Shown here in pieces: positions 7,517 to 50,133 of a DNA stretch of 64,000 nt. Location of the stretch: the NCBI GenBank assembly GCA_964536865.1, contig CAZHYN010000004.1, forward strand, positions 12,900 through 76,899, written 5' to 3'. Position 1 is the first letter of the stretch. Every line of letters starts with the position of its first letter. The position numbers were made by a program, and so were the translations under genes. The notes beneath the pieces were generated by a model, which saw only the letters and a program-made list of their open reading frames with translations, was not told the origin of the DNA and ran no database searches. Source of the stretch: an uncultured Planctomycetia bacterium. Its GTDB lineage: Bacteria; Omnitrophota; Gorgyraeia; Duberdicusellales; 4484-171.

Positions 7517-8271
7517 ACATTATTAAAATAGAAAATCTTACTAAATTTTTTGACAGTAAAAAAGTATTGGATAAGATAAATTTAGAAATTAGTGAGGGGG
7601 AGTCGTTTTTAATTTTAGGGAGAAGTGGTGCAGGTAAAACAGTTCTTTTAAAACATATTATTGGCTTACTTAAGCCAGATTCAGGGAGAGTATTCATTGA
7701 GGGAGTAGATATTACCTCGCTTTCTAAAGAAAAGTTAGATAGAATAAGGTTGAAGTTCGGTGTAGTTTTTCAAAACAGTGCCCTCTTTGATTCCCTAACA
7801 GTAGAGGAAAATGTAGGATTTGCTCTTTACCATCACTCGGATTTAACTAGAGAACAGATCACTAAGGAAGTTTCTCATTATTTAGAAGTAGTGGGTCTAA
7901 AAGGTACTGAAAAGTTGTATCCCCATCAGCTAAGTGGAGGAATGAAAAAAAGGGTAGCTATTGCTAGAGCAGTAATCTACCATCCTAAGATAATTATCTA
8001 TGATGAACCTACTACAGGGATTGACCCTATCTCGGTAGATAAAATAATCTCCCTTATTAATGAGCTTAAAAGTAAACTTTCCGTTACCACCTTAGTAGTC
8101 ACCCATGATTTGAATGTTGGTCTTAAGATAGCAGATAGGTGTGCGTTTCTCCTTAGAGGGAGAATAATCTTTGAGGGTAAGAAAGAAGATTTAGAGCATA
8201 TTAAGGATGAGAGAATTATCCAATTCATAAGAGGAAGTTCATCTGGACCAATAAAGGAGATGGAGGTATAG
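7513..8271 (+). CDS. mlaF: Phospholipid ABC transporter ATP-binding protein MlaF
   Basis: Walker A GRSGAGKT, signature LSGGMKKRVAIARA, Walker B IIYDEPTTGID. Start taken at the internal ATG (MNIIKIENLTKFF) rather than the overlapping upstream ATG at 7477. Confidence 0.85.
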   Translation: MNIIKIENLTKFFDSKKVLDKINLEISEGESFLILGRSGAGKTVLLKHIIGLLKPDSGRVFIEGVDITSLSKEKLDRIRLKFGVVFQNSALFDSLTVEENVGFALYHHSDLTREQITKEVSHYLEVVGLKGTEKLYPHQLSGGMKKRVAIARAVIYHPKIIIYDEPTTGIDPISVDKIISLINELKSKLSVTTLVVTHDLNVGLKIADRCAFLLRGRIIFEGKKEDLEHIKDERIIQFIRGSSSGPIKEMEV

Positions 8272-25786: not shown

Positions 25787-26497
25787 ATGAAAAGGGGTTA
25801 TTCCCTCATAGAAATTATAATGGTAGTAGTAGTCAGTCTTGTTATTGCTACCTTTACTGTGGTGGGGTATCGGCAGCTTTTGGAGAATGCTCGTCAAAGA
25901 GTATGTTCTACCAATTTAAAAGCCTTAGGGGCAGCGGTAGAGATTTATGCTTTAGAAAACGATGTTTTGCCCGCTACTTTGGGAGATTTAAAACTAGAGC
26001 ATCTTCTAAAAGGTTATGCTAAGGTGATAGATAGTAGAGATTGGTTTACAAAATTTTCTTATTTTTTTATCAAAATTAATACTCCCCCTGATGTTTATGC
26101 TCAGTTTTTAACCCCTGAAAACTTAAAAAAATATGGGGTAACTCCAGAAATATTTAGATGTCCTGCAGATACAAATGGTCCTCCTTCTTATGGTATAAAC
26201 GCTAACTTGGCAGGTAAGAAGTTAGAGAATATTCCCCCGGGAGAGATTATAGTTGCTGAGTGCGACCACTATACTTTTACTTCCCAGGATGAACTTTCCT
26301 TTCGTCACTTCTCTGGTTTTGGTCTTAAGAAGCTTGCGCAGATGTTAGTAGTTGCTGAGGAAGGGAAAGGGCAAGAAAAAGGGAAAAAAATGAAGATGAT
26401 GAAGAGGAAGATGATGAAGATGAAGAAGACGAAGATGATTGAAATTCCTCTGAAGGGAAGGTTAAAAAATAAGAGGAGGGATAAACAGGAGAAGTAG
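25787..26497 (+). CDS. Prepilin-type N-terminal cleavage/methylation domain protein (pilin or pseudopilin-like) with a Lys/Met-rich C-terminal tail
   Basis: Class III signal KRGYSLIEIIMVVVV. RBS GGAGGTGA 7 nt upstream. Tail KKMKMMKRKMMKMKKTKM is encoded by a (GAW)n purine triplet repeat that follows an A7 tract. Confidence 0.7.
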   Translation: MKRGYSLIEIIMVVVVSLVIATFTVVGYRQLLENARQRVCSTNLKALGAAVEIYALENDVLPATLGDLKLEHLLKGYAKVIDSRDWFTKFSYFFIKINTPPDVYAQFLTPENLKKYGVTPEIFRCPADTNGPPSYGINANLAGKKLENIPPGEIIVAECDHYTFTSQDELSFRHFSGFGLKKLAQMLVVAEEGKGQEKGKKMKMMKRKMMKMKKTKMIEIPLKGRLKNKRRDKQEK

Positions 26498-26525: not shown

Positions 26526-28889
26526 ATGAAATTTTTCAAGGATAAAGATTTTCTCTTCCCTTTAATAATTTGGTTTATAATTATTTTCTGGTATTTAATC
26601 TTTGCGTATAGTTTTTTTTACCCTTTTCGTATTCGTCTACAGGATAAACTGAATTGCCAGGCATTTTATGTATTTTCTCATCCTCCTTCCTCTGTAAACA
26701 AAGTAGTAATTGTAGCTATTGACTCAGCTTCACGCCAGTATCTTCAGCTTAAATGGCCATGGCCAAGGAGGATTACCGCTCGTCTTCTTCGTAACATTAT
26801 GGAGTTCTCTCCCAAAGTTATAGGATTGGACATTATCTTTGCGGGTAAATCCTCTTCCGAAGATGATGAAGAGTTGCTCAGTGTGTTAAAAAACTATCCT
26901 CATACAGTATTAGCGTATACTCTATCTGAAAAAAGCTGCGAATATCCCTGGGAAGGATTTAAAAGAGTGGCTCCTTCTTTAGGATTCATAAATAAGCCAG
27001 GAGAGAAAGATAGGGTAGTGAGAAGTATCCGTACCTTCTATATAGATAGAGAATGGAGGACGCATTACTCTTTAGATACCCAGATTTTAATTCACTATTT
27101 TAATATTAAAAAAGAAGATATTAAGGTTGAGCTGGCTAAAGGAATTTTCTTAGGAGAGAGACTTTTTGTGCCTTCATCAGGGGGAATAACTCCTCTTAAT
27201 TACTTGGCCCATCCTAGTGATTTTATCACCGTCCCTGCTTTTTTGGTGTTAAATAAGAAAGTCGACTCCGATATATTTAAAGATAAAATTGTCCTTGTAG
27301 GTGCTACCGACCCTTTGATTCATGATGTTTGCTCTACGCCCATAGGAGTTTTCCCAGGAGTAACAGTCATAGCTAACTCCTTGGTAATGATGTTAAGTGG
27401 ACGTTTCCTCTACTATCTTCCTTTAGGAGTAACTGTTCTTCTTTCCTTGGGTGTAGGTATTGGAATTATGATGATTAATAAGAAATTTTCTTTGAGTTTT
27501 TCTTCGCTAATTACTTTTGTAATTTTAATTTTTTCTTATTTTTTACTTCTCTACTTAAGGGCAAAAGATATTCAGATTGACTACTTTACTTTTTTCTTTC
27601 TAGGAGTTTCTGCTTATTTGGTTCCCAATGTATACAAGTATAGCTATGCCATATATATGGGCACTACACTCAAGAACCTGGCTATAAGAGATCCTCTTAC
27701 AGGATTCTACACCTTCCGTTACTTTTCCTTAAAAATTGAGGAGGCATTGAAGGAGAAATCAAAAAGTATAGGATTAGTTATCATTATGTTTTCTAATTAT
27801 AAAAAGCTTTCTCTAAAGTTAAGTTTTGAGCACTTGAAAAGACTGGTTAAGCTACTTTCTAATTTTCTTCAGGTGAGTGTCTCTAAGGAATTTAAGCGGT
27901 TCTTCTTCTCCCGTATTTCTGAAGATTCAATAGCAATAGCTCTTTTAGAAGAAGATAGGGAAAAGATAGAAAAATTTTTAAAAATTATGTTAGAGGAGTC
28001 CAAGCATAAAGAGTTTAAGGTGGAAGATTATTCTGTAAAAGTCTTTTTTAGAGGAGTGATATTCTACAAGAGGAAAGGGATTCGCCTGAGCAGAGAAGTT
28101 TTGCTTTCTAAAATAGAGAGTTTCTTGAGAGAATTCCGCAAAAAGAGTGATGAACTTGCTATTTTGGAATTAGAAGAAAGTAAGGAAGAGACAAGGGATA
28201 CTCTTTTGCCATGGGAAAGTTGGGATTTTTTGATTACTGATCTGGAGGAGAGAAATAAAGAATTAGAGAGGGCATTGAAAGAGACTCTCGATACCAAAAG
28301 AGAGACAGAAGAAGCATATTTTGGGCTAATTTATTCTCTTGTCAAAGCGTTGGAGGAAAAGGATACTTATACTCAAGGACATTCGGAGAGAGTGGCTAAC
28401 TATGCTAAAGCTATCGCTGAAGAAGTGGGTTTAGACGAGGAGGAGTGTGAGTTAATTTACAAAGCAGGACTTTTACATGATATAGGCAAAATTGGCATTC
28501 CTGATTATATTCTCCATAAAAAGAAAGAGCTTACCTCCCAGGAAAGGGAGTTTATAAGAAAACACGAAATAATGAGTGTAGAAATACTTAGGCCTATCAA
28601 AGCCTTCCACCGGTTGCTTCCTATAATTTTGCATCATCATGAGCGTTTCGATGGTACCGGTTACCCTTATGGTTTGAGTGGAAATATGATTCCTCGTGGT
28701 GCTCAAATTTTGGCAGTGGCAGATGCTTTTGATGCTGTAACCTGTGGTAGGGGATATAAGAAAGGAATAAGTTTTGAGGAGGCGATTAGAGAATTAGAGA
28801 ATAATAGTGGTACACAATTTAATCCTGTTTATGTTGAGGCACTGAAGAAGGTAATTAACAGGTCTTTTAAGAATGAAGATTTTTCCTAA
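26526..28889 (+). CDS. CHASE2 sensor, degenerate GGDEF domain and HD-GYP c-di-GMP phosphodiesterase
   Basis: N-terminal CHASE2 region bounded by TM helices. RDPLTG start of a GGDEF-like domain that lacks the GGDEF motif. C-terminal HD-GYP domain (HSERVANYA...LHDIGKIGIP...HHHERFDGTGYPYGL). Confidence 0.85.
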   Translation: MKFFKDKDFLFPLIIWFIIIFWYLIFAYSFFYPFRIRLQDKLNCQAFYVFSHPPSSVNKVVIVAIDSASRQYLQLKWPWPRRITARLLRNIMEFSPKVIGLDIIFAGKSSSEDDEELLSVLKNYPHTVLAYTLSEKSCEYPWEGFKRVAPSLGFINKPGEKDRVVRSIRTFYIDREWRTHYSLDTQILIHYFNIKKEDIKVELAKGIFLGERLFVPSSGGITPLNYLAHPSDFITVPAFLVLNKKVDSDIFKDKIVLVGATDPLIHDVCSTPIGVFPGVTVIANSLVMMLSGRFLYYLPLGVTVLLSLGVGIGIMMINKKFSLSFSSLITFVILIFSYFLLLYLRAKDIQIDYFTFFFLGVSAYLVPNVYKYSYAIYMGTTLKNLAIRDPLTGFYTFRYFSLKIEEALKEKSKSIGLVIIMFSNYKKLSLKLSFEHLKRLVKLLSNFLQVSVSKEFKRFFFSRISEDSIAIALLEEDREKIEKFLKIMLEESKHKEFKVEDYSVKVFFRGVIFYKRKGIRLSREVLLSKIESFLREFRKKSDELAILELEESKEETRDTLLPWESWDFLITDLEERNKELERALKETLDTKRETEEAYFGLIYSLVKALEEKDTYTQGHSERVANYAKAIAEEVGLDEEECELIYKAGLLHDIGKIGIPDYILHKKKELTSQEREFIRKHEIMSVEILRPIKAFHRLLPIILHHHERFDGTGYPYGLSGNMIPRGAQILAVADAFDAVTCGRGYKKGISFEEAIRELENNSGTQFNPVYVEALKKVINRSFKNEDFS

Positions 28890-29481
28890 GACTTTCTTTC
28901 TTTTTTTCTTCCTTCCTTCGTTAATTTTTGGATGCAGTTATCCAATTAAAAACTTAGATTCTCCAGGAGAGATAATAATATGTTTTGGAGATAGTATAAC
29001 CCGGACAGAGGGAATTCCTTTAGAGAAAACCTACCCTGCAATTCTAAGTGAACTTTTACATAGAGAAGTTATAAATGCCGGTGTTTCTGGTGATACAACT
29101 GCCACTGCTCTAAGAAGATTAGAGAGAGATGTTTTAAGGAAGAATCCCTACTTGGTTATCGTGGAGTTAGGAGGCAATGATTTTTTAACTGGGATCTCTA
29201 AAGAAATCACTTTAAGGAACTTGGAAGAGATAATCGTTAAGATTCAAGAAGTGAAAGCTATAGTTGTTCTTTGCGATATAAGCTGTGGTTTCATCCTCTC
29301 AGGGTATAGGAAAGATTTTTACCAGTTGGCTAAGAAGACAGGTGCCATTTTCGTTTCTCAACTACTGGAGGGAATCTTAGATAATCCTTCTGCAAAACAG
29401 GATTATATCCATCCCAATGTTGAAGGTCATAGACTTATCGCTCAAAAAATCTACCAAGTGATAAAGCCCTACCTCAAATAA
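28873..29481 (+). CDS. SGNH/GDSL hydrolase lipoprotein (TesA/arylesterase-like)
   Basis: Lipobox LIFGCS. Catalytic block I IICFGDSIT. Block III GGNDF. DxxH near the C-terminus. Confidence 0.85.
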   Translation: MKIFPKTFFLFFFLPSLIFGCSYPIKNLDSPGEIIICFGDSITRTEGIPLEKTYPAILSELLHREVINAGVSGDTTATALRRLERDVLRKNPYLVIVELGGNDFLTGISKEITLRNLEEIIVKIQEVKAIVVLCDISCGFILSGYRKDFYQLAKKTGAIFVSQLLEGILDNPSAKQDYIHPNVEGHRLIAQKIYQVIKPYLK

Positions 29482-29581
29482 TTAAGGTAAATGTCGGACA
29501 GCAGACTTCTAATAGTTTCCCTTGATTTTAGTTATAAATCTCCAGTTCAAAGAAAAAGTTAATGAATGTGAGGTTAAACCA

Positions 29582-29598
29582 TGCCGAGGGCGGGAGTC
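29582..29598 (-). repeat. Orphan copy of the 3' end of tRNA-Leu, inside a 43-bp direct repeat (29556-29598 and 29907-29949)
   Basis: tgccgagggcgggagtc with the 5' flank aagttaatgaatgtgagRttaaaccatg matches 29907-29949 almost exactly. Confidence 0.8.
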
Positions 29599-29808
29599 AA
29601 GGCACTGAGTGCTTCGCACTATTTTAACCAGTGCCTTCATAGGGACTCTGTCCACTTGAGGCTCGGCTCATAGGAAAAAATCACAGAAAATAACTTCGCC
29701 TCGCTGTCACCCTGAAGTATTATCAAAGAAGATATTGTTAATAATTATTTTTAGAAGGTATTTAAAAAGAATAATGTAGACCCCAATTCTGACTTTAAAA
29801 ACAAAAAG

Positions 29809-29826
29809 TGCCGAGGGCGGGAGTCG
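29809..29826 (-). repeat. Second orphan tRNA-Leu 3'-end fragment (18 nt) with a different flank
   Basis: tgccgagggcgggagtcg is identical to the tRNA-Leu 3' terminus. It is followed by hairpin tcgcc-aaa-ggcga at 29835-29847. Confidence 0.8.
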
Positions 29827-29932
29827 TAACAAATTCGCCAAAGGCGATTTCCCTTATTTGTTCCGACAATACTTTCGTTTCAGAGTTAACTTCTAGCTTA
29901 AAAAAGAAGTTAATGAATGTGAGATTAAACCA

Positions 29933-30016
29933 TGCCGAGGGCGGGAGTCGAACCCGCACAGAGTTACCTCTACCGGTTTTTGAGACCGACGCGTCTGCCA
30001 ATTCCGCCACCTCGGC
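29933..30016 (-). tRNA. tRNA-Leu(CAA), class II with long variable arm; CCA not encoded
   Basis: Hand-folded from the sequence. Acceptor GCCGAGG/CCTCGGC. Anticodon stem TCGGT/ACCGG with loop CTCAAAA. 15-nt variable arm. T arm GCGGG-TTCGACT-CCCGC. Discriminator A. Confidence 0.85.
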
Positions 30017-30185
30017 ATTTACTTTATATTATTATCCTACTCCTATTAGTCTTGCTCCTTAACAACTTCTCTCTTCTATTAACTACACGGGAACAACTAA
30101 ATTGAGCTTCGCTGTAATAACAGCGAAAGTTGTTACCGCCACCTCGGCATTTACTTTATATTATTATCCTACTCCTATTAGTTCT
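30000..30185. repeat. ~49-bp direct repeat (30000-30048 and 30137-30185) copying the tRNA-Leu 5' end plus its upstream flank
   Basis: ccgccacctcggcatttactttatattattatcctactcctattagt occurs twice, 137 bp apart. The spacer contains palindrome cgctgtaataacagcg. Confidence 0.85.
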
Positions 30186-30421
30186 GTCTATAGGATTTTT
30201 TCTATTAACTAATAATAACTACTAAATTAGTCTTTACCTCTTGACGGAGAAGACTATTTTTTCTTGGTCTCTATTTCTTTATTTGTTCCGGGAACTTTAA
30301 AATCTTAGCATTAGCAAAATTCTTTGTCAATTGACAATTTTTCTGTTAGATGATATATTTTAGTTTAAAGTTTCTCCCTAAAGTAGACAGAGCATATAGA
30401 TAGATGAGAGAGGCCGTAGTT

Positions 30422-31170
30422 TCCGCCAAAGGCGGACCCACTTATGAGGGGCGATCCTTGATGGGCCATTTAAAAATAAATAAATTTCTTCTTTGGTCAT
30501 ACTCTAGGGGTGACAGCAAGCCGTGTTTAACTACCTCGGATTTACTTATAGGCTTGCGTCAGAGGGGCAGAGCCCCTATGAGGAGCGTAAGCGACAGGGC
30601 CGTAGTTTCCGCCAAAGGCGGACCCGCTTATGAGCGGGCAGCAGGGAGTAAGTTGTCTGCAACGTTAAGTTGCAGTATTCTTAAATATACAACTTCCTCC
30701 ATTGTTTATGATGTTAAAGATAGGCTGTCTCTTTAAAATAGAAGCTAAAGAAAAGTGATGGGGCCGTAGTTCAGCAGGGAGAACGCTACGCTGGCAGCGT
30801 AGAGGTCAGGGGTTCAAATCCCCTCGGCTCCACCAGTTAGATTGTTAAATTCTCATTTTTAGGTGATATAAATGTTTTTATTAATAGATGGTAATTTTTA
30901 AGGTTTTCCAGTAAAATTGCGGGGCCGTAGTTTCCGCCAAAGGCGGACCCGCTTATGAGCGGGCAGCAGGGAGTAAGTTGTCTGCAACGTTAAGTTGCAG
31001 TATTCTTAAATATACAACTTCCTCCATTGTTTATGATGTTAAAGATAGGCTGTCTCTTTAAAATAGAAGCTAAAGAAAAGAGATGGGGCCGTAGTTCAGC
31101 AGGGAGAACGCTACGCTGGCAGCGTAGAGGTCACGGGTTTCCGCCAGAGGCGGACCCGCCTTTAGGCGGG
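30422..31170 (+). repeat. Four copies of a ~31-nt GC-rich double-hairpin mini-element (30422-30451, 30608-30639, 30933-30964, 31140-31170)
   Basis: Consensus tccgccaRaggcgga-cccgcYtWtRaGcggg. Copies 1-3 follow gccgtagtt, a tRNA-Ala 5'-end mimic. Copy 4 lies inside the T-loop of the second tRNA-Ala. Stem 2 shows compensatory T:A to C:G change between copies. Confidence 0.8.
30760..30835 (+). tRNA. tRNA-Ala(GGC) with G3:U70 identity pair; CCA encoded
   Basis: GGGGCCGTAGTTCAGCAGGGAGAACGCTACGCTGGCAGCGTAGAGGTCAGGGGTTCAAATCCCCTCGGCTCCACCA. Anticodon loop CTGGCAG. T arm AGGGG-TTCAAAT-CCCCT. Confidence 0.9.
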
Positions 31171-31191
31171 CAAATCCCGTCGGCTCCACCA
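31085..31191 (+). tRNA. tRNA-Ala(GGC) second copy interrupted by a 31-nt double-hairpin insertion in the T-loop (possible pseudogene, or an intron-like insertion)
   Basis: Identical to copy 1 through the variable loop. Insert tccgccagaggcggacccgcctttaggcggg sits between T-loop TT and CAAAT. T-stem pair 50:64 changed G:C to C:G, which preserves pairing. Confidence 0.6.
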
Positions 31192-31208
31192 GCCAATTCC
31201 TTAAAGAG

Positions 31209-32066
31209 TTGTTAAGGTTAGGTGTTCAAGTTTCAATTGCTGGTGGTATCCATTTCTCCGTAGATAGAGCGTTGAAATTAGGGTGTAATGCTATGCAGAT
31301 ATTCTCTCGTAATCCACGGAAGTTTAGAAAGAGTTTTCTAAAAGTGGAAGATATAGAACTTTTTAAAAAAAAGATCAGTGGTTCTTCTATCTTTCCCCTG
31401 GTTATTCATACTCCTTATACCTTAAATTTAGCTACCCCTCAAAAATTCCTTCATTGGATTACTACTAAGGAGTTTATCGCTGATTTAATAGAGGCAGACA
31501 AGTTAGGCGCTCACTACTTAGTTACTCATCCAGGCTGTTATAAAGGAACTACTAAAGAGGGAGGGTTAAATCAAGTAGTAAAGGGTTTAAGGAGAATATT
31601 GAAAAATACTCAAGAGGTAAAGACAGAGATTCTTTTAGAAAATACTGCAGGGGGTGGCACGTGTCTGGGATCTAAAATTTCTCAGTATAGATTCATATTG
31701 GAAAAGTTGGATTTCACTCCCCGGATAGGTATATGTTTAGATACTGCTCATGCATGGTGTGCAGGTTATAGGATAAATACTCACCAAGGTTTAGAAGAAC
31801 TACTTCAAGAGATAGAAAAAGAGGTAGGTATCCAAAGATTAAAACTTATTCACCTTAATGATACCCTTGAAGAATTGGGTTCAAAGAAAGACCGTCATTA
31901 TCATATTGGGGAAGGTATGATTGGGAGAGATGGTTTTTCTTTGATAGTTAACCATCCTTTTCTTAAGAACTTACCTTTTATTTTAGAGACACCTAAAAAG
32001 AACGATAGGGATGATATAAAGAATTTAAATACTGTAAGAGCACTTTATAGAGATGAATTACTCTAA
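31209..32066 (+). CDS. nfo: Endonuclease IV (AP endonuclease family 2)
   Basis: TIM-barrel xylose-isomerase-like fold. ILLENTAGGG. LGICLDTAHAW. 285 aa. Confidence 0.85.
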   Translation: MLRLGVQVSIAGGIHFSVDRALKLGCNAMQIFSRNPRKFRKSFLKVEDIELFKKKISGSSIFPLVIHTPYTLNLATPQKFLHWITTKEFIADLIEADKLGAHYLVTHPGCYKGTTKEGGLNQVVKGLRRILKNTQEVKTEILLENTAGGGTCLGSKISQYRFILEKLDFTPRIGICLDTAHAWCAGYRINTHQGLEELLQEIEKEVGIQRLKLIHLNDTLEELGSKKDRHYHIGEGMIGRDGFSLIVNHPFLKNLPFILETPKKNDRDDIKNLNTVRALYRDELL

Positions 32067-48932: not shown

Positions 48933-49450
48933 AGAGGGTAATTCTTTTGTTTCTCTTACTAGGAGGCTGTGGTTATACTACCTACCTTGTGAGTTCCTCA
49001 TTAGGAGAAGGTAAAATTTATGTAAAACCAGTAGCTAATGAGGTCAGAATAACTTCTGAAGATAGAGCCTATTCTGATTATACTGTTTATCCTGTTCTCT
49101 TAGATAAAGATTTGACCAATGCTATCATTGATGAGTTACAAATAAGAACTCCTCTTAAAGTAGTAAGCTCTCCCGATGGTGCCTATACTTTAGAGTGTAA
49201 GATTGTTAACTATAAGAAGGAAGCACTAAGATACACTGATACTGACGAGGTTAATGAGCAAAGATTGAGATTATACGTTAAGGTAATAGTTTATGATGCT
49301 GAAAAGAATTTAATTAAAGAGAGAGAAGTGGTAGGAGAAGCTTCTTACTTTTTTTCGGGACGCCTGGCTTCTTCAGAGTCCGAAGCTTTAAATGAGCTTA
49401 TAGAAGATACAGCAAAGAGAGTAGTAGATACCCTTTCCCAAGACTGGTAA
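48929..49450 (+). CDS. LptE-like small lipoprotein
   Basis: Lipobox LLLGGCG. 173 aa. Sits directly upstream of holA, as E. coli lptE does. Confidence 0.5.
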   Translation: MKRVILLFLLLGGCGYTTYLVSSSLGEGKIYVKPVANEVRITSEDRAYSDYTVYPVLLDKDLTNAIIDELQIRTPLKVVSSPDGAYTLECKIVNYKKEALRYTDTDEVNEQRLRLYVKVIVYDAEKNLIKEREVVGEASYFFSGRLASSESEALNELIEDTAKRVVDTLSQDW

Positions 49451-50133
49451 TGGAAGGGAAAATTTTCTGTGTTATTGGTTTAGATTTCGAGCATCGTCAA
49501 AGAGCTATAGAAAATATAAAGAAAGGGTTATTAAAAGAAAAGACAACTTTCTTAAATACAGTGGTTCTATACTGCAAGAATTTGAATCTTCAGGAGTTAA
49601 AAAACACACTCTATACTTTTCCTTTAGAAAAAAAAAGAGTTGTTATTTTTAAGGGTGCTGAATATCTCTCTCAAGAAGTAAAACTATTTCTCTTAAAGAA
49701 GTTAAAGGATTTGCTCTCCTTGAATTATTTAATCTTTGAGATAGAGAGAGACCACGCTCAGTTTATTTACGACAGAAAAGTAAGAGAGGATAAGTTCTTT
49801 TCTTATCTTTTAAAGAGATGTATTTTAAGAAGAATTATTTCTATACAAGAAGATTATTCTCTAAATAAATTAATATCTCTGGTAAGGAGAAATGAACGAG
49901 CCCAGGCTTTTTCCACTTTAGAAAAGATGTTCTTGCAGCCCAAGAAAAGCGAGAATTTAGCAACTCAGATTTTAGGAGCATTAACTCGTGAATTTTCTTA
50001 TCTTACTAATCCTTACCAAAAGAGTAGATACTTTCAACTTTTCTGGGAGGCAGATAGATTAATAAAAGAAAAGGGTATTCCTTCTAAGTTAGCCTTGGAG
50101 ATACTTTTAGCAAAGTTGTTTGAGATAAGTTAA
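49450..50133 (+). CDS. holA: DNA polymerase III delta subunit-like protein (short)
   Basis: 227 aa helical protein in the conserved position after lptE. Weak delta-like pattern only. Confidence 0.45.
   Translation: MEGKIFCVIGLDFEHRQRAIENIKKGLLKEKTTFLNTVVLYCKNLNLQELKNTLYTFPLEKKRVVIFKGAEYLSQEVKLFLLKKLKDLLSLNYLIFEIERDHAQFIYDRKVREDKFFSYLLKRCILRRIISIQEDYSLNKLISLVRRNERAQAFSTLEKMFLQPKKSENLATQILGALTREFSYLTNPYQKSRYFQLFWEADRLIKEKGIPSKLALEILLAKLFEIS

Follow-up and report, generated by a model that had tools for sequence, protein, structure and literature searches.

Duplicated tRNA ends joined to covarying hairpins in repeated units of ~130 nt at a tRNA-Leu/tRNA-Ala locus of Omnitrophota

Introduction

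How does a bacterial tRNA gene come to be surrounded by loose copies of its own two ends? The question is raised by the tRNA-Leu(CAA) gene in a 64-kb window (the whole stretch of DNA analyzed here, from contig CAZHYN010000004.1) of a Candidatus Omnitrophota bacterium with ~36% G+C, the host being identified from the nfo and GDSL homologues as named by their sources. The gene occupies part of a non-coding spacer of 1.7 kb, bordered by a GDSL esterase gene (28873-29481) on one side and by nfo-leuS (31221 onward) on the other, and this spacer houses the whole array described below. A first-pass annotation had read the fragments as scars of repeated insertion and excision, or decay, of small tyrosine-integrase-type elements at the tRNA, or as segmental duplications. 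Our results show that the orphan ends are parts of structured, recurring units of ~130 nt, in which each broken tRNA end is fused to a hairpin that is under structural constraint.

Results and Discussion

Both ends of tRNA-Leu are duplicated

The last 17 nt of tRNA-Leu (TGCCGAGGGCGGGAGTC) occur in exact copies at 29582, 29809 and 29933, and the dinucleotide-shuffled window gave 0 matches even when 3 mismatches were allowed. The recurrence of the tRNA 3' end at 29582-29598 and 29809-29826, proposed in the first-pass annotation, is thereby borne out, the latter copy agreeing over 18 nt. One copy had also been said to share the downstream flank of the gene, and indeed 29556-29598 and 29907-29949 are identical at 42 of 43 positions, a similarity that can be extended to 58 nt at 90% (29541-29598 and 29892-29949); the other copy (29809-29826) has, as annotated, a different downstream flank, CTTTTTGTTTTT. 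The direct repeat reported for the 5' end is real and exact over 47 nt (30004-30050 and 30136-30182, spacing 132), comprising the 13-nt 5' end of tRNA-Leu and 34 nt of upstream flank, but its second range (30137-30185) had been placed 5 nt out of register: the two 49-bp ranges originally given align at 17 of 49 positions, and at 46 of 49 once the second is shifted by 5 nt. With 106-209 nt of non-coding DNA between the 3' copies, the orphans are, as had been suggested, duplicated tRNA ends flanking short inserted or duplicated DNA.

The classical mark of such integration at a tRNA gene is a directly repeated 3' end that begins in the T loop, and tRNA fragments derived from element integration have been reviewed (PMC9897764). 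The fragments could thus be scars of the attL/attR type, produced when tyrosine-integrase elements or cis-mobilisable remnants repeatedly integrated and then decayed or were excised, and the three same-orientation copies of the 17-mer are in line with such an origin. However, a Pfam search of essentially all open reading frames (ORFs) in the 64 kb returned housekeeping genes only, confirming the absence of integrase and cargo that had already been noted; transposases, HUH nucleases and reverse transcriptases were likewise not found. Moreover, both ends of the gene are duplicated rather than one, and the hairpins described below covary instead of decaying neutrally.

An independent assembly of the same strain (L031; related loci are numbered with the prefix L) is identical to the window over 29482-29812, a stretch that takes in the outer 3' copy with its hairpin and the beginning of the middle copy. 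The tRNA-Leu gene, the 5' repeat and the Ala side lie outside this overlap and rest on one assembly together with the same architecture in relatives. L031 is one of four contigs (L031-L034) from the same strain or close variants, with identical GDSL protein, all of which terminate inside the spacer: L031-L033 at ~29800-29812, where the middle tRNA-Leu 3' fragment is just reached or narrowly missed, and L034 at ~29537, 56 nt past the GDSL stop codon. L032 and L033 deviate from the window within the spacer, including 2 substitutions within the outermost 3' fragment. The contig breaks and these differences point to population heterogeneity at the spacer.

Each orphan end is fused to a hairpin under structural constraint

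The broken inner side of every orphan tRNA end is joined directly to a hairpin, here called E (Table 1). On the tRNA strand the 5' fragment (positions 1-13) breaks off after the D-stem strand GCGG and runs straight into hairpin E5; on the opposite strand the T-loop break of the middle 3' fragment leads into E3, and the outer 3' fragment leads into E*. The three hairpins have a common anatomy, consisting of a 4-bp base, a 1x1 mismatch, an outer stem of 6-9 bp, an inner hairpin beside the 5' strand and a loop of 8-14 nt on the 3' side. The base is formed by the last four bases of the tRNA and four bases beyond the hairpin, paired across the conserved 1x1 mismatch. In E5 the base GCGG/CCGT is followed by a T.C mismatch, the outer stem AACAACT/AGTTGTT, the inner hairpin TTCGCTGT-TATT-ACAGCGAA and a 3'-side loop of 9 nt. 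E3 has the base GTCG/CGAC, a T.C mismatch, the outer stem AACAAAT/ATTTGTT and the inner hairpin TCGCC-AAA-GGCGA, and in E* the AGTC of the tRNA fragment is paired with GACT at 29644-29647, with the outer stem AAGGCACTG/CAGTGCCTT, the inner hairpin AGTGC-TTC-GCACT and a 3'-side loop of 8 nt. On the Ala side, E-Ala has the base GGAG/CTCC, a T.C mismatch and the outer stem AAGTTG/CAACTT (minimum free energy, MFE, -24 kcal/mol, z = -5.0), and its orthologues in L027 and L006 have compensatory stems.

A repeat unit is made up of the hairpin, an AT-rich spacer with promoter-like sequence and a tRNA end, and its period is 122-136 nt in all classes; this near-constant length does not look like random decay. 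Units in head-to-tail order flank a single intact tRNA gene on either side. Junctions of the 5' units fall after D-stem position 13 (GCGG|AA), and those of the mirror-oriented 3' units fall in the T loop (TT|C, or GTCG|AA when read on the opposite strand).

From 15 Leu 5' units a covariance model (R1) was built; it retrieves each of the 15 with scores of 51-74 bits and detects 21 hairpins in total. E3 elements score 23-28 bits, solely on the strand antisense to the tRNA; the window copy is matched at 29817-29868 on the plus strand only (25.2 bits, E = 0.003), and the L027 copy of E-Ala at 20 bits. Over 18 distinct sequences 91.3% of the cells are paired, as compared with 77.8% in shuffles, and slid-register controls reach 33-55%. 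Double (compensatory) changes occur in 11 of 17 pairs, and the covariation score is attained by 0 of 500 shuffles. The same signature was observed by unconstrained folding in 14 of 17 modules. G.T pairs (13) are more numerous than A.C pairs (4), in line with the modelled strand being the one that folds. The tandem copies of L011+L013 and of L018 differ in sequence and keep the fold. Hairpin E is thus under structural constraint.

Selection on a fold is also what functional RNAs would show, and transcripts consisting of a tRNA-end tail and a hairpin might affect maturation, stability or expression of the neighbouring tRNA by competing for acceptor strands, by serving as decoys or by acting as processing stems of the RNase III type; the arrays would then be gene amplifications. 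The covarying structure with its excess of G.U over A.C, the promoter-like sequences before the units and the fact that the fragments always match the adjacent tRNA are in favour of this explanation. So is L012, where two E5 copies are identical at 50 of 50 positions whereas their spacers have diverged (54 of 68). On the other hand, joint transcription of both kinds of module with the tRNA would give 3' modules whose fold mirrors that of the 5' modules, there is one array behind purH, and no Rfam family is matched: in searches of the region at permissive thresholds, of the whole window and of eight related loci, the tRNA family alone passed. We regard an origin as functional RNAs as improbable, although such a role can coexist with either of the origins weighed below.

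The junction follows a pairing rule

The target tetranucleotide and the tetranucleotide on the far side of the hairpin change together. For the Leu D arm the pair is GCGG and CCGC, for the Ala D arm GGAG and CTCC, for the Leu T loops TTCGACT and TTCAACT, respectively, GTCG and CGAC, and GTTG and CAAC, for the Ala T loop TTTG and CAAA, and for Gly TGGG and CCCA. The base of 3-4 bp at the junction thus covaries over six target tetranucleotides, and in the intact gene the target tetranucleotide is always followed by AA (on the other strand, TT|C). A resemblance of the GCGG of the Leu fragment to the 5' strand of the T stem, considered as mimicry, is true only for the CAA isoacceptor.

Junctions of this kind could arise with no dedicated mobility. 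The hairpins would then be native leader or trailer hairpins of the pre-tRNA, with roles in processing, stability or termination, and, at a tRNA pair as highly transcribed as this one, replication slippage or template switching between the 5' foot of the hairpin and 4-7 nt of microhomology in the tRNA would have given tandem duplications with a tRNA fragment|hairpin junction, followed by changes in copy number through unequal crossing-over. The microhomologies GCGGAA, GTCGAA and TGGGAAT are present at the junctions, and such microhomology would by itself ensure that the end of the fragment pairs with the hairpin's native far side. Slippage leaves unexplained, however, why the junction is identical at three tRNA-Leu isoacceptor loci, why the unit length is about equal for Leu, Ala and Lys, why the far-side tetranucleotide tracks differences in the T loop (CGAC vs. 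CAAC) and why the 1x1 mismatch is kept at every junction.

The units recur at tRNA genes of related bacteria

Related loci were obtained through nfo and GDSL homologues and through a junction-motif scan of genome and metagenome collections; the ~200 kb of related DNA sampled in this way is a biased selection, the loci being chosen by motif or synteny. The modules occur in several Omnitrophota MAGs and metagenomes, across lineages in which the nfo proteins are 60-85% identical to that of the window. A 5' fragment with E5 precedes tRNA-Leu(CAA) in L001, L012, L019, L035, L003 and L007 (three tandem units in L007), tRNA-Leu(CAG) in L016 and L011+L013 (three units) and tRNA-Leu(UAG) in L021, a Leu 5' fragment is likewise found in L024, and the 13-nt fragment is in each case the own 5' end of the neighbouring tRNA. 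L018 contains a four-unit array with fragments that match the tRNA-Leu(CAG) of L016, and the locus stops before the tRNA. E3 with a 3' fragment follows tRNA-Leu in L003, L012, L035 (two units), L021 and L030, the E3 orthologues of the window being those of L003, L012, L035 and L030. At tRNA-Ala, 5' modules were found in the window, L027 and L006, and 3' modules in L006 and L030; equivalent modules occur at tRNA-Gly (L021) and tRNA-Lys (L018). Eight matches of the motif scan (L009, L010, L014, L017, L020, L022, L023 and L025) were rejected as chance matches in coding regions, with no hairpin and no nearby tRNA.

Some of these loci show further peculiarities. In L018 (2076-4724) tRNA-Lys has two tandem 3' hairpin modules with a period of 136, directly followed by archease-like and RtcB-type RNA ligase-like ORFs and preceded by an smpB-like ORF (N-termini, judged by eye). 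The archease/RtcB-like neighbours may be a coincidence; they would be relevant if interrupted tRNAs are repaired at the RNA level. L011 has, at 7700-7766 on the minus strand, a tRNA-Leu-like gene cut exactly after T54-T55 of the T loop (...GAGGGTT|CCCCGCCAC...), situated between the three-unit array and the intact tRNA-Leu(CAG) and not called by ARAGORN. In L007 (3222-3959) and L029 (3017-3370) the tRNA-Leu/tRNA-Ala block is inverted relative to nfo, so that Ala is read from the minus strand and Leu, adjoining nfo, from the plus strand.

Occupied and empty sites

A comparison of occupied and empty sites in relatives had been suggested in the first-pass annotation, and such sites were found. 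Three related loci (L004, L028 and L029) are clean and contain only the divergent tRNA pair around a conserved palindromic promoter, which implies that the modules are dispensable and speaks against functional RNAs. L035 and L012 appear closely related and have near-identical flanks. In L035 tRNA-Ala is uninterrupted, 55 nt downstream of the palindromic promoter, and L012 has a 354-nt insert at tRNA-Ala positions 12/13 (GTAGTT|CAG), bounded by a 12-nt direct repeat. This insert contains a different promoter and leader, the motif U described below, and not a copy of the local upstream sequence, as duplication by slippage would have it. Leu units vary in number and kind between the window, L012 and L035, and unit copy numbers range from 1 to 4 among the loci. 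The spacer is a recombination hotspot, as had been proposed, with relatives differing in both occupancy and copy number.

Several features of the relatives are nevertheless what slippage would give. An E-like hairpin without tRNA fragment lies 66 nt upstream of tRNA-Leu in L004 (28.9 bits with R1), L028 and L029 have leader hairpins, whole units are homologous including 8-35 nt of native flank, and the two 3' units of L035 are clean tandem repeats.

One site lies outside tRNA genes. Immediately behind the purH stop codon of L026 stands a tandem pair of units with a Leu-type E (63.5 bits), each unit terminating in a copy of the last 10 nt of purH, and the site shares TT|CCGCCA with the antisense strand of the tRNA-Leu D arm. 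A relative with the same gene order and a PurH that is 77% identical (L038) has a plain 52-nt spacer after purH and no cassette. The hairpin family has therefore reached a non-tRNA site with the same short motif. A Leu-type hairpin at the end of purH is not accounted for by slippage at a native tRNA leader, and we consider that explanation, on balance, unlikely.

The same loci bear on the attachment-site scars. Occupied and empty alleles, as in L012 and L035, are known from integrating elements, and in L003 and L006 different genes (DUF4382 and IAT_beta ORFs) lie downstream of tRNA-Leu, so that this side is variable. Yet 5' fragments, with their promoter copies, match the 3' fragments in frequency and regularity, the inserts have a constant size of ~110-120 nt and always start or end with a covarying hairpin, and the purH case duplicates target sequence and has no tRNA-derived attP. 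The modules are, moreover, conserved between lineages, unlike neutral scars. With a hairpin at each junction and units of near-constant length, the interpretation as decayed attL/attR scars is not supported, and we consider it very improbable.

A separate double hairpin element

A second, separate element of 30-31 nt, here called the double hairpin element (DHE), consists of hairpin 1 (TCCGCC-ARA-GGCGGA) and hairpin 2, approximately the reverse complement of hairpin 1. It follows TT in both tRNA-Ala 5' fragments of the window, where it is kept in L001, L012, L003 and L027 and is missing from L006. A different copy (31140-31170) lies between T55 and C56 of the second tRNA-Ala, the same T-loop position at which the Leu 3' fragments start, and expands the T loop to 36 nt. 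This interrupted gene is recognized by the Rfam tRNA model and not called by ARAGORN, and its orthologue in L003, with an nfo protein 99% identical, is intact. The interrupted copy has probably become a pseudogene only recently, tolerated thanks to the intact copy upstream of it (30760-30835). A third variant, of 30 nt, is found inside the U leader of L032 and L033, where the window has 8 nt. DHE presence varies between contigs with identical GDSL protein and between contigs with 99% identical nfo.

The DHE inserts without duplication of its target, a simple insertion that slippage does not explain. Its wobble variants, TCTGCC/GGCGGA for instance, are consistent with a fold formed by the tRNA-sense strand, in agreement with a function at the RNA level. 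A scan of viral contigs for the double hairpin gave 0 matches.

Origin of the units

Taken together, we find it quite possible, while stopping short of regarding it as established, that the cassettes are small site-specific, non-autonomous hairpin insertion modules that were amplified by unequal recombination. A more far-reaching reading, which we offer tentatively and with more doubt, is that they represent miniature non-coding insertion modules of a class not yet described, found in Omnitrophota, each of which would pick its target, for the most part a tRNA D or T loop, through pairing with 4 nt at the foot of its hairpin on a folded single strand. In this form the gene end would be regenerated by duplication, the module would supply its own promoter or trailer and build arrays, and an enzyme from another part of the genome, perhaps a novel single-strand recombinase of the HUH or another type, would act on it. 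Literature searches gave no description of equivalent modules.

The proposed pathway can be outlined as follows. An enzyme encoded elsewhere would place a cassette at NNNG|AA sites, the site being chosen on a folded single strand by 4-bp pairing between a 'guide' in the element and the target, which would resemble site choice of the IS200/IS605 type. Insertion would duplicate the 10-22 nt between the cut and the gene end. The duplication would regenerate the tRNA gene, which would receive the promoter or trailer of the cassette and so survive, and arrays would then expand and contract via unequal recombination between units.

Several observations weigh against insertion modules. Duplications of variable length (10-22 nt or more) are unlike IS200/IS605 or other HUH elements, which make none, and the junctions vary, as E* joins after TTC and not TT and the DHE of L032 lies after TC. 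Units within one array are homologous over their full length, native flank included, and plain tandem duplication predicts the same. Diverged tandem copies that keep their fold by compensatory change point to long residence and selection on the fold, and this selection could reflect RNA function rather than mobility. In the related DNA sampled, the hairpins are found only beside tRNA genes with the exception of L026, the single non-tRNA site seen. Finally, the Pfam search of the window gave no candidate enzyme, and the larger ORFs of other cassette-bearing loci are housekeeping-like, with no candidate among them (first 40 residues, judged by eye).

Comparison with known systems

The insertion-module reading invites comparison with several known systems. 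As in the tRNA attachment-site duplications made by tyrosine-integrase islands and their integrase-less remnants (CIMEs), direct repeats of tRNA ends flank an insert, the gene is restored, 3' breaks fall within the T loop, alleles are either occupied or empty and insertions accumulate in tandem at one tRNA. In contrast to these, the cassettes have a constant size of ~130 nt, 5' duplications are as frequent as 3' duplications, each junction has a covarying hairpin with 4-nt complementarity to the target, no integrase was found in the window, and one cassette site is a non-tRNA site where the duplicated sequence stems from the target.

IS200/IS605 elements (mobilized by the Y1 HUH transposase TnpA), palindrome-associated transposable elements (PATEs) and repetitive extragenic palindromes (REPs) with their REP-associated tyrosine transposases (RAYTs) carry imperfect hairpins on one strand, and are small, non-coding and GC-rich in AT-rich DNA. 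In IS200/IS605, 4 nt beside the hairpin foot pair with the cleavage or target tetranucleotide, so that the target is set by the element, and there are no terminal inverted repeats; REPs and the mosaic elements composed of them (BIMEs) form tandem arrays. The cassettes agree with this group in these respects and have a subterminal imperfect hairpin and a 4-nt guide that pairs with the flanking target, although the geometry differs from that of IS608: the guide lies 3' of the hairpin as a plain helix extension. Elements of the IS200/IS605 family bear hairpins at both ends and do not duplicate their target, whereas the cassettes have one hairpin per unit, duplicate 10-22 nt or longer and, save for L026, are confined to tRNA ends; the DHE is the element that inserts with no duplication. 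No Y1 HUH transposase or RAYT was found in the window (Pfam) or among the larger ORFs of the related loci (by eye).

Integron attC sites, and arrays of them that lack an integrase (CALIN), likewise have conserved structure with variable sequence, conserved unpaired bases and asymmetry and an outer stem AAC...GTT, and there, too, short units that each end in a hairpin are arrayed at a fixed entry point, the newest lying nearest the entry (for the cassettes, according to the insertion-module reading). The cassettes differ in that the units have no ORF, the entry is a tRNA loop and there is no IntI. An identity with attC was rejected: the ends of E read GGTAAC...GTTCCCGC, which does not agree with the R''/R' consensus (RYYYAAC/GTTRRRY), the junction is TT|C and not G|TT, and the AAC...GTT core alone is shared.

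For the 30-31-nt DHE the nearest parallels are the GC clusters and double hairpin elements of mitochondria, such as those of Allomyces, which are tiny GC-rich two-hairpin insertions in AT-rich genomes, found in RNA genes and spacers. The DHE is likewise a tiny GC-rich double hairpin, and its presence or absence between close relatives implies mobility. Unlike them it is bacterial and a near-perfect palindrome (X followed by the reverse complement of X), and it lies after TT (once TC) without duplication, in D and T loops of tRNAs and in a tRNA leader.

Other identities were rejected. A transfer-messenger RNA (tmRNA) or permuted tmRNA is not supported, the Rfam matches being the acceptor and T arm of tRNA-Ala below threshold, and a tmRNA, in one or two pieces, has neither a tag reading frame nor an ARAGORN call here. 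Split tRNAs do not fit fragments (5', positions 1-13; 3', positions ~56-73) that lack the anticodon and variable arms and lie alongside an intact tRNA. The T-loop insert folds as an extra arm with no bulge-helix-bulge, unlike a spliced tRNA intron of the archaeal type. Reverse transcription of mature tRNA, as 18-mers resembling primer-binding sites would suggest, does not agree with Leu fragments that have no CCA and in some cases carry the flank of the gene. For a type V-K CRISPR-associated transposon or guide-RNA homing there is no Cas or TnpB gene among the window ORFs (Pfam). A miniature inverted-repeat transposable element, with terminal inverted repeats and a fixed target-site duplication, is contradicted by a hairpin at one unit end only, by a spacer end that has no inverted copy and by duplication lengths of 10, 12, 13, 18 and 22 nt.

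Other features of the spacer and the window

The features of the spacer are listed in Table 1. The perfect palindrome TTGTCAATTGACAA at 30324-30337 provides back-to-back sigma-70-like promoters (TTGACA-17-TATATT on the plus strand, TTGACA-17-TAAGAT on the minus strand). This is the native promoter of the divergent tRNA-Leu/tRNA-Ala pair, and it is kept in every relative examined (L001, L003, L004, L006, L028, L029, L030 and L035). A promoter-like sequence, TAGACA-16-GATAAT, is present at the outer copy of the 5'-unit spacer. The degenerate unit E0 begins with CGGAACAAAT, and its spacer is homologous to that of the E5 unit (TAGTTAATAGAA...).

Two inverted copies of the motif U lie on the two sides of the locus, at 30483-30596 (plus) and 29635-29740 (minus), and in L006 (3175-3290, minus) a copy lies directly upstream of the intact tRNA-Leu. 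The minus-strand copy of the window has a -10-like TAATAC, GGGTGACAG, a helix, GGAC-AGA-GTCC and CTATGAAG; as shared between copies, the motif reads GGGTGACAG, a covarying helix (CAAGCC/GGCTTG vs. TCCGCC/GGCGGA) and CGTCAGAG-GGGGC-AGA-GCCCC-TATGAGG. The motif matches no Rfam family.

Table 1. Features of the 29.5-31.2 kb spacer in window coordinates.
Feature	Position	Strand	Remarks
Outermost tRNA-Leu 3' fragment (c)	29541-29598	minus	17 nt (29582-29598), T-loop position ~58 to A73, plus 41 nt of own downstream flank
Hairpin E*	29599-29648	plus	Folding strand antisense to tRNA; MFE -30.1 kcal/mol, z = -2.9
Promoter-plus-leader motif U	29635-29740	minus	Here reading into E* and fragment (c)
tRNA-Leu 3' fragment (b)	29809-29826	minus	18 nt, T loop to A73
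Hairpin E3	29826-29868	plus	Mirror-oriented member of the E family; covariance model and fold
tRNA-Leu(CAA), intact	29933-30016	minus	Rfam tRNA 57.3 bits; ARAGORN boundaries 29932-30017; CCA not encoded
5'-unit spacer	30017-30085	minus	Purine-rich, AT-rich; last 34 nt repeated at 30149-30182
Hairpin E5	30086-30135	minus	R1 54.8 bits over 30086-30148; MFE -23.2 kcal/mol, z = -3.7
tRNA-Leu 5' fragment and upstream-flank copy	30136-30182	minus	tRNA positions 1-13 (30136-30148) plus 34 nt; 47-nt exact repeat
Degenerate outermost hairpin unit E0	30215-30296	minus	Read by eye; weak; R1 does not detect it
Palindromic bidirectional promoter	30302-30359	both	
Native tRNA-Ala 5' fragment 1 with DHE	30412-30467	plus	tRNA positions 3-12; 31-nt DHE at 30422-30452; left junction of the 354-nt insert missing from L035
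tRNA-Ala 5' fragment 2 with DHE, then hairpin E-Ala	30597-30703	plus	tRNA positions 2-22, interrupted by DHE (30608-30638)
tRNA-Ala(GGC)	30760-30835	plus	ARAGORN, Rfam
Second tRNA-Ala(GGC) copy	31085-31195	plus	Split between T55 and C56 by 31-nt double hairpin (31140-31170); Rfam 49.3 bits

On the Ala side, a 325-nt tandem duplication (30597-30921 and 30922-31246) comprises the Ala 5' fragment, hairpin, spacer and tRNA-Ala. Its copies are 99% identical over 218 nt and 76% identical in the T arm (AGGGG vs. ACGGG) and the downstream part. This uneven identity suggests, by comparison of the two copies, an older duplication that may have been partly homogenized by gene conversion. A 110-codon ORF at 30404-30736 spans the Ala fragments and hairpins, and it is almost certainly spurious because it crosses repeated non-coding modules. 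Elsewhere in the window, the ORFs at 25787-26497 (236 aa) and 49450-50133 (227 aa) have no Pfam match at E <= 1e-5; the remaining ORFs are recognizable housekeeping genes, for example CysRS, MetRS, LeuRS, TsaE and TsaB/D-like.

Implications

Fragments of tRNA genes are routinely taken for footprints of genomic islands, a reading that would be wrong at this locus. Here a structured, recurring module of ~130 nt exchanges tRNA-gene promoters and trailers, and strains that are otherwise nearly identical differ in it. Such modules break metagenome assemblies, and they create pseudo-tRNAs and interrupted tRNAs that are missed or miscalled by annotation tools. If the modules are mobile, a rule for target selection (4-nt pairing next to AA) and a further enzyme are implied in a poorly known phylum, and the palindromic double hairpin of 30 nt would be among the smallest bacterial mobile DNAs known. 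Mobility of the modules would also illustrate a way for selfish DNA to settle in essential tRNA genes and yet leave them alive.

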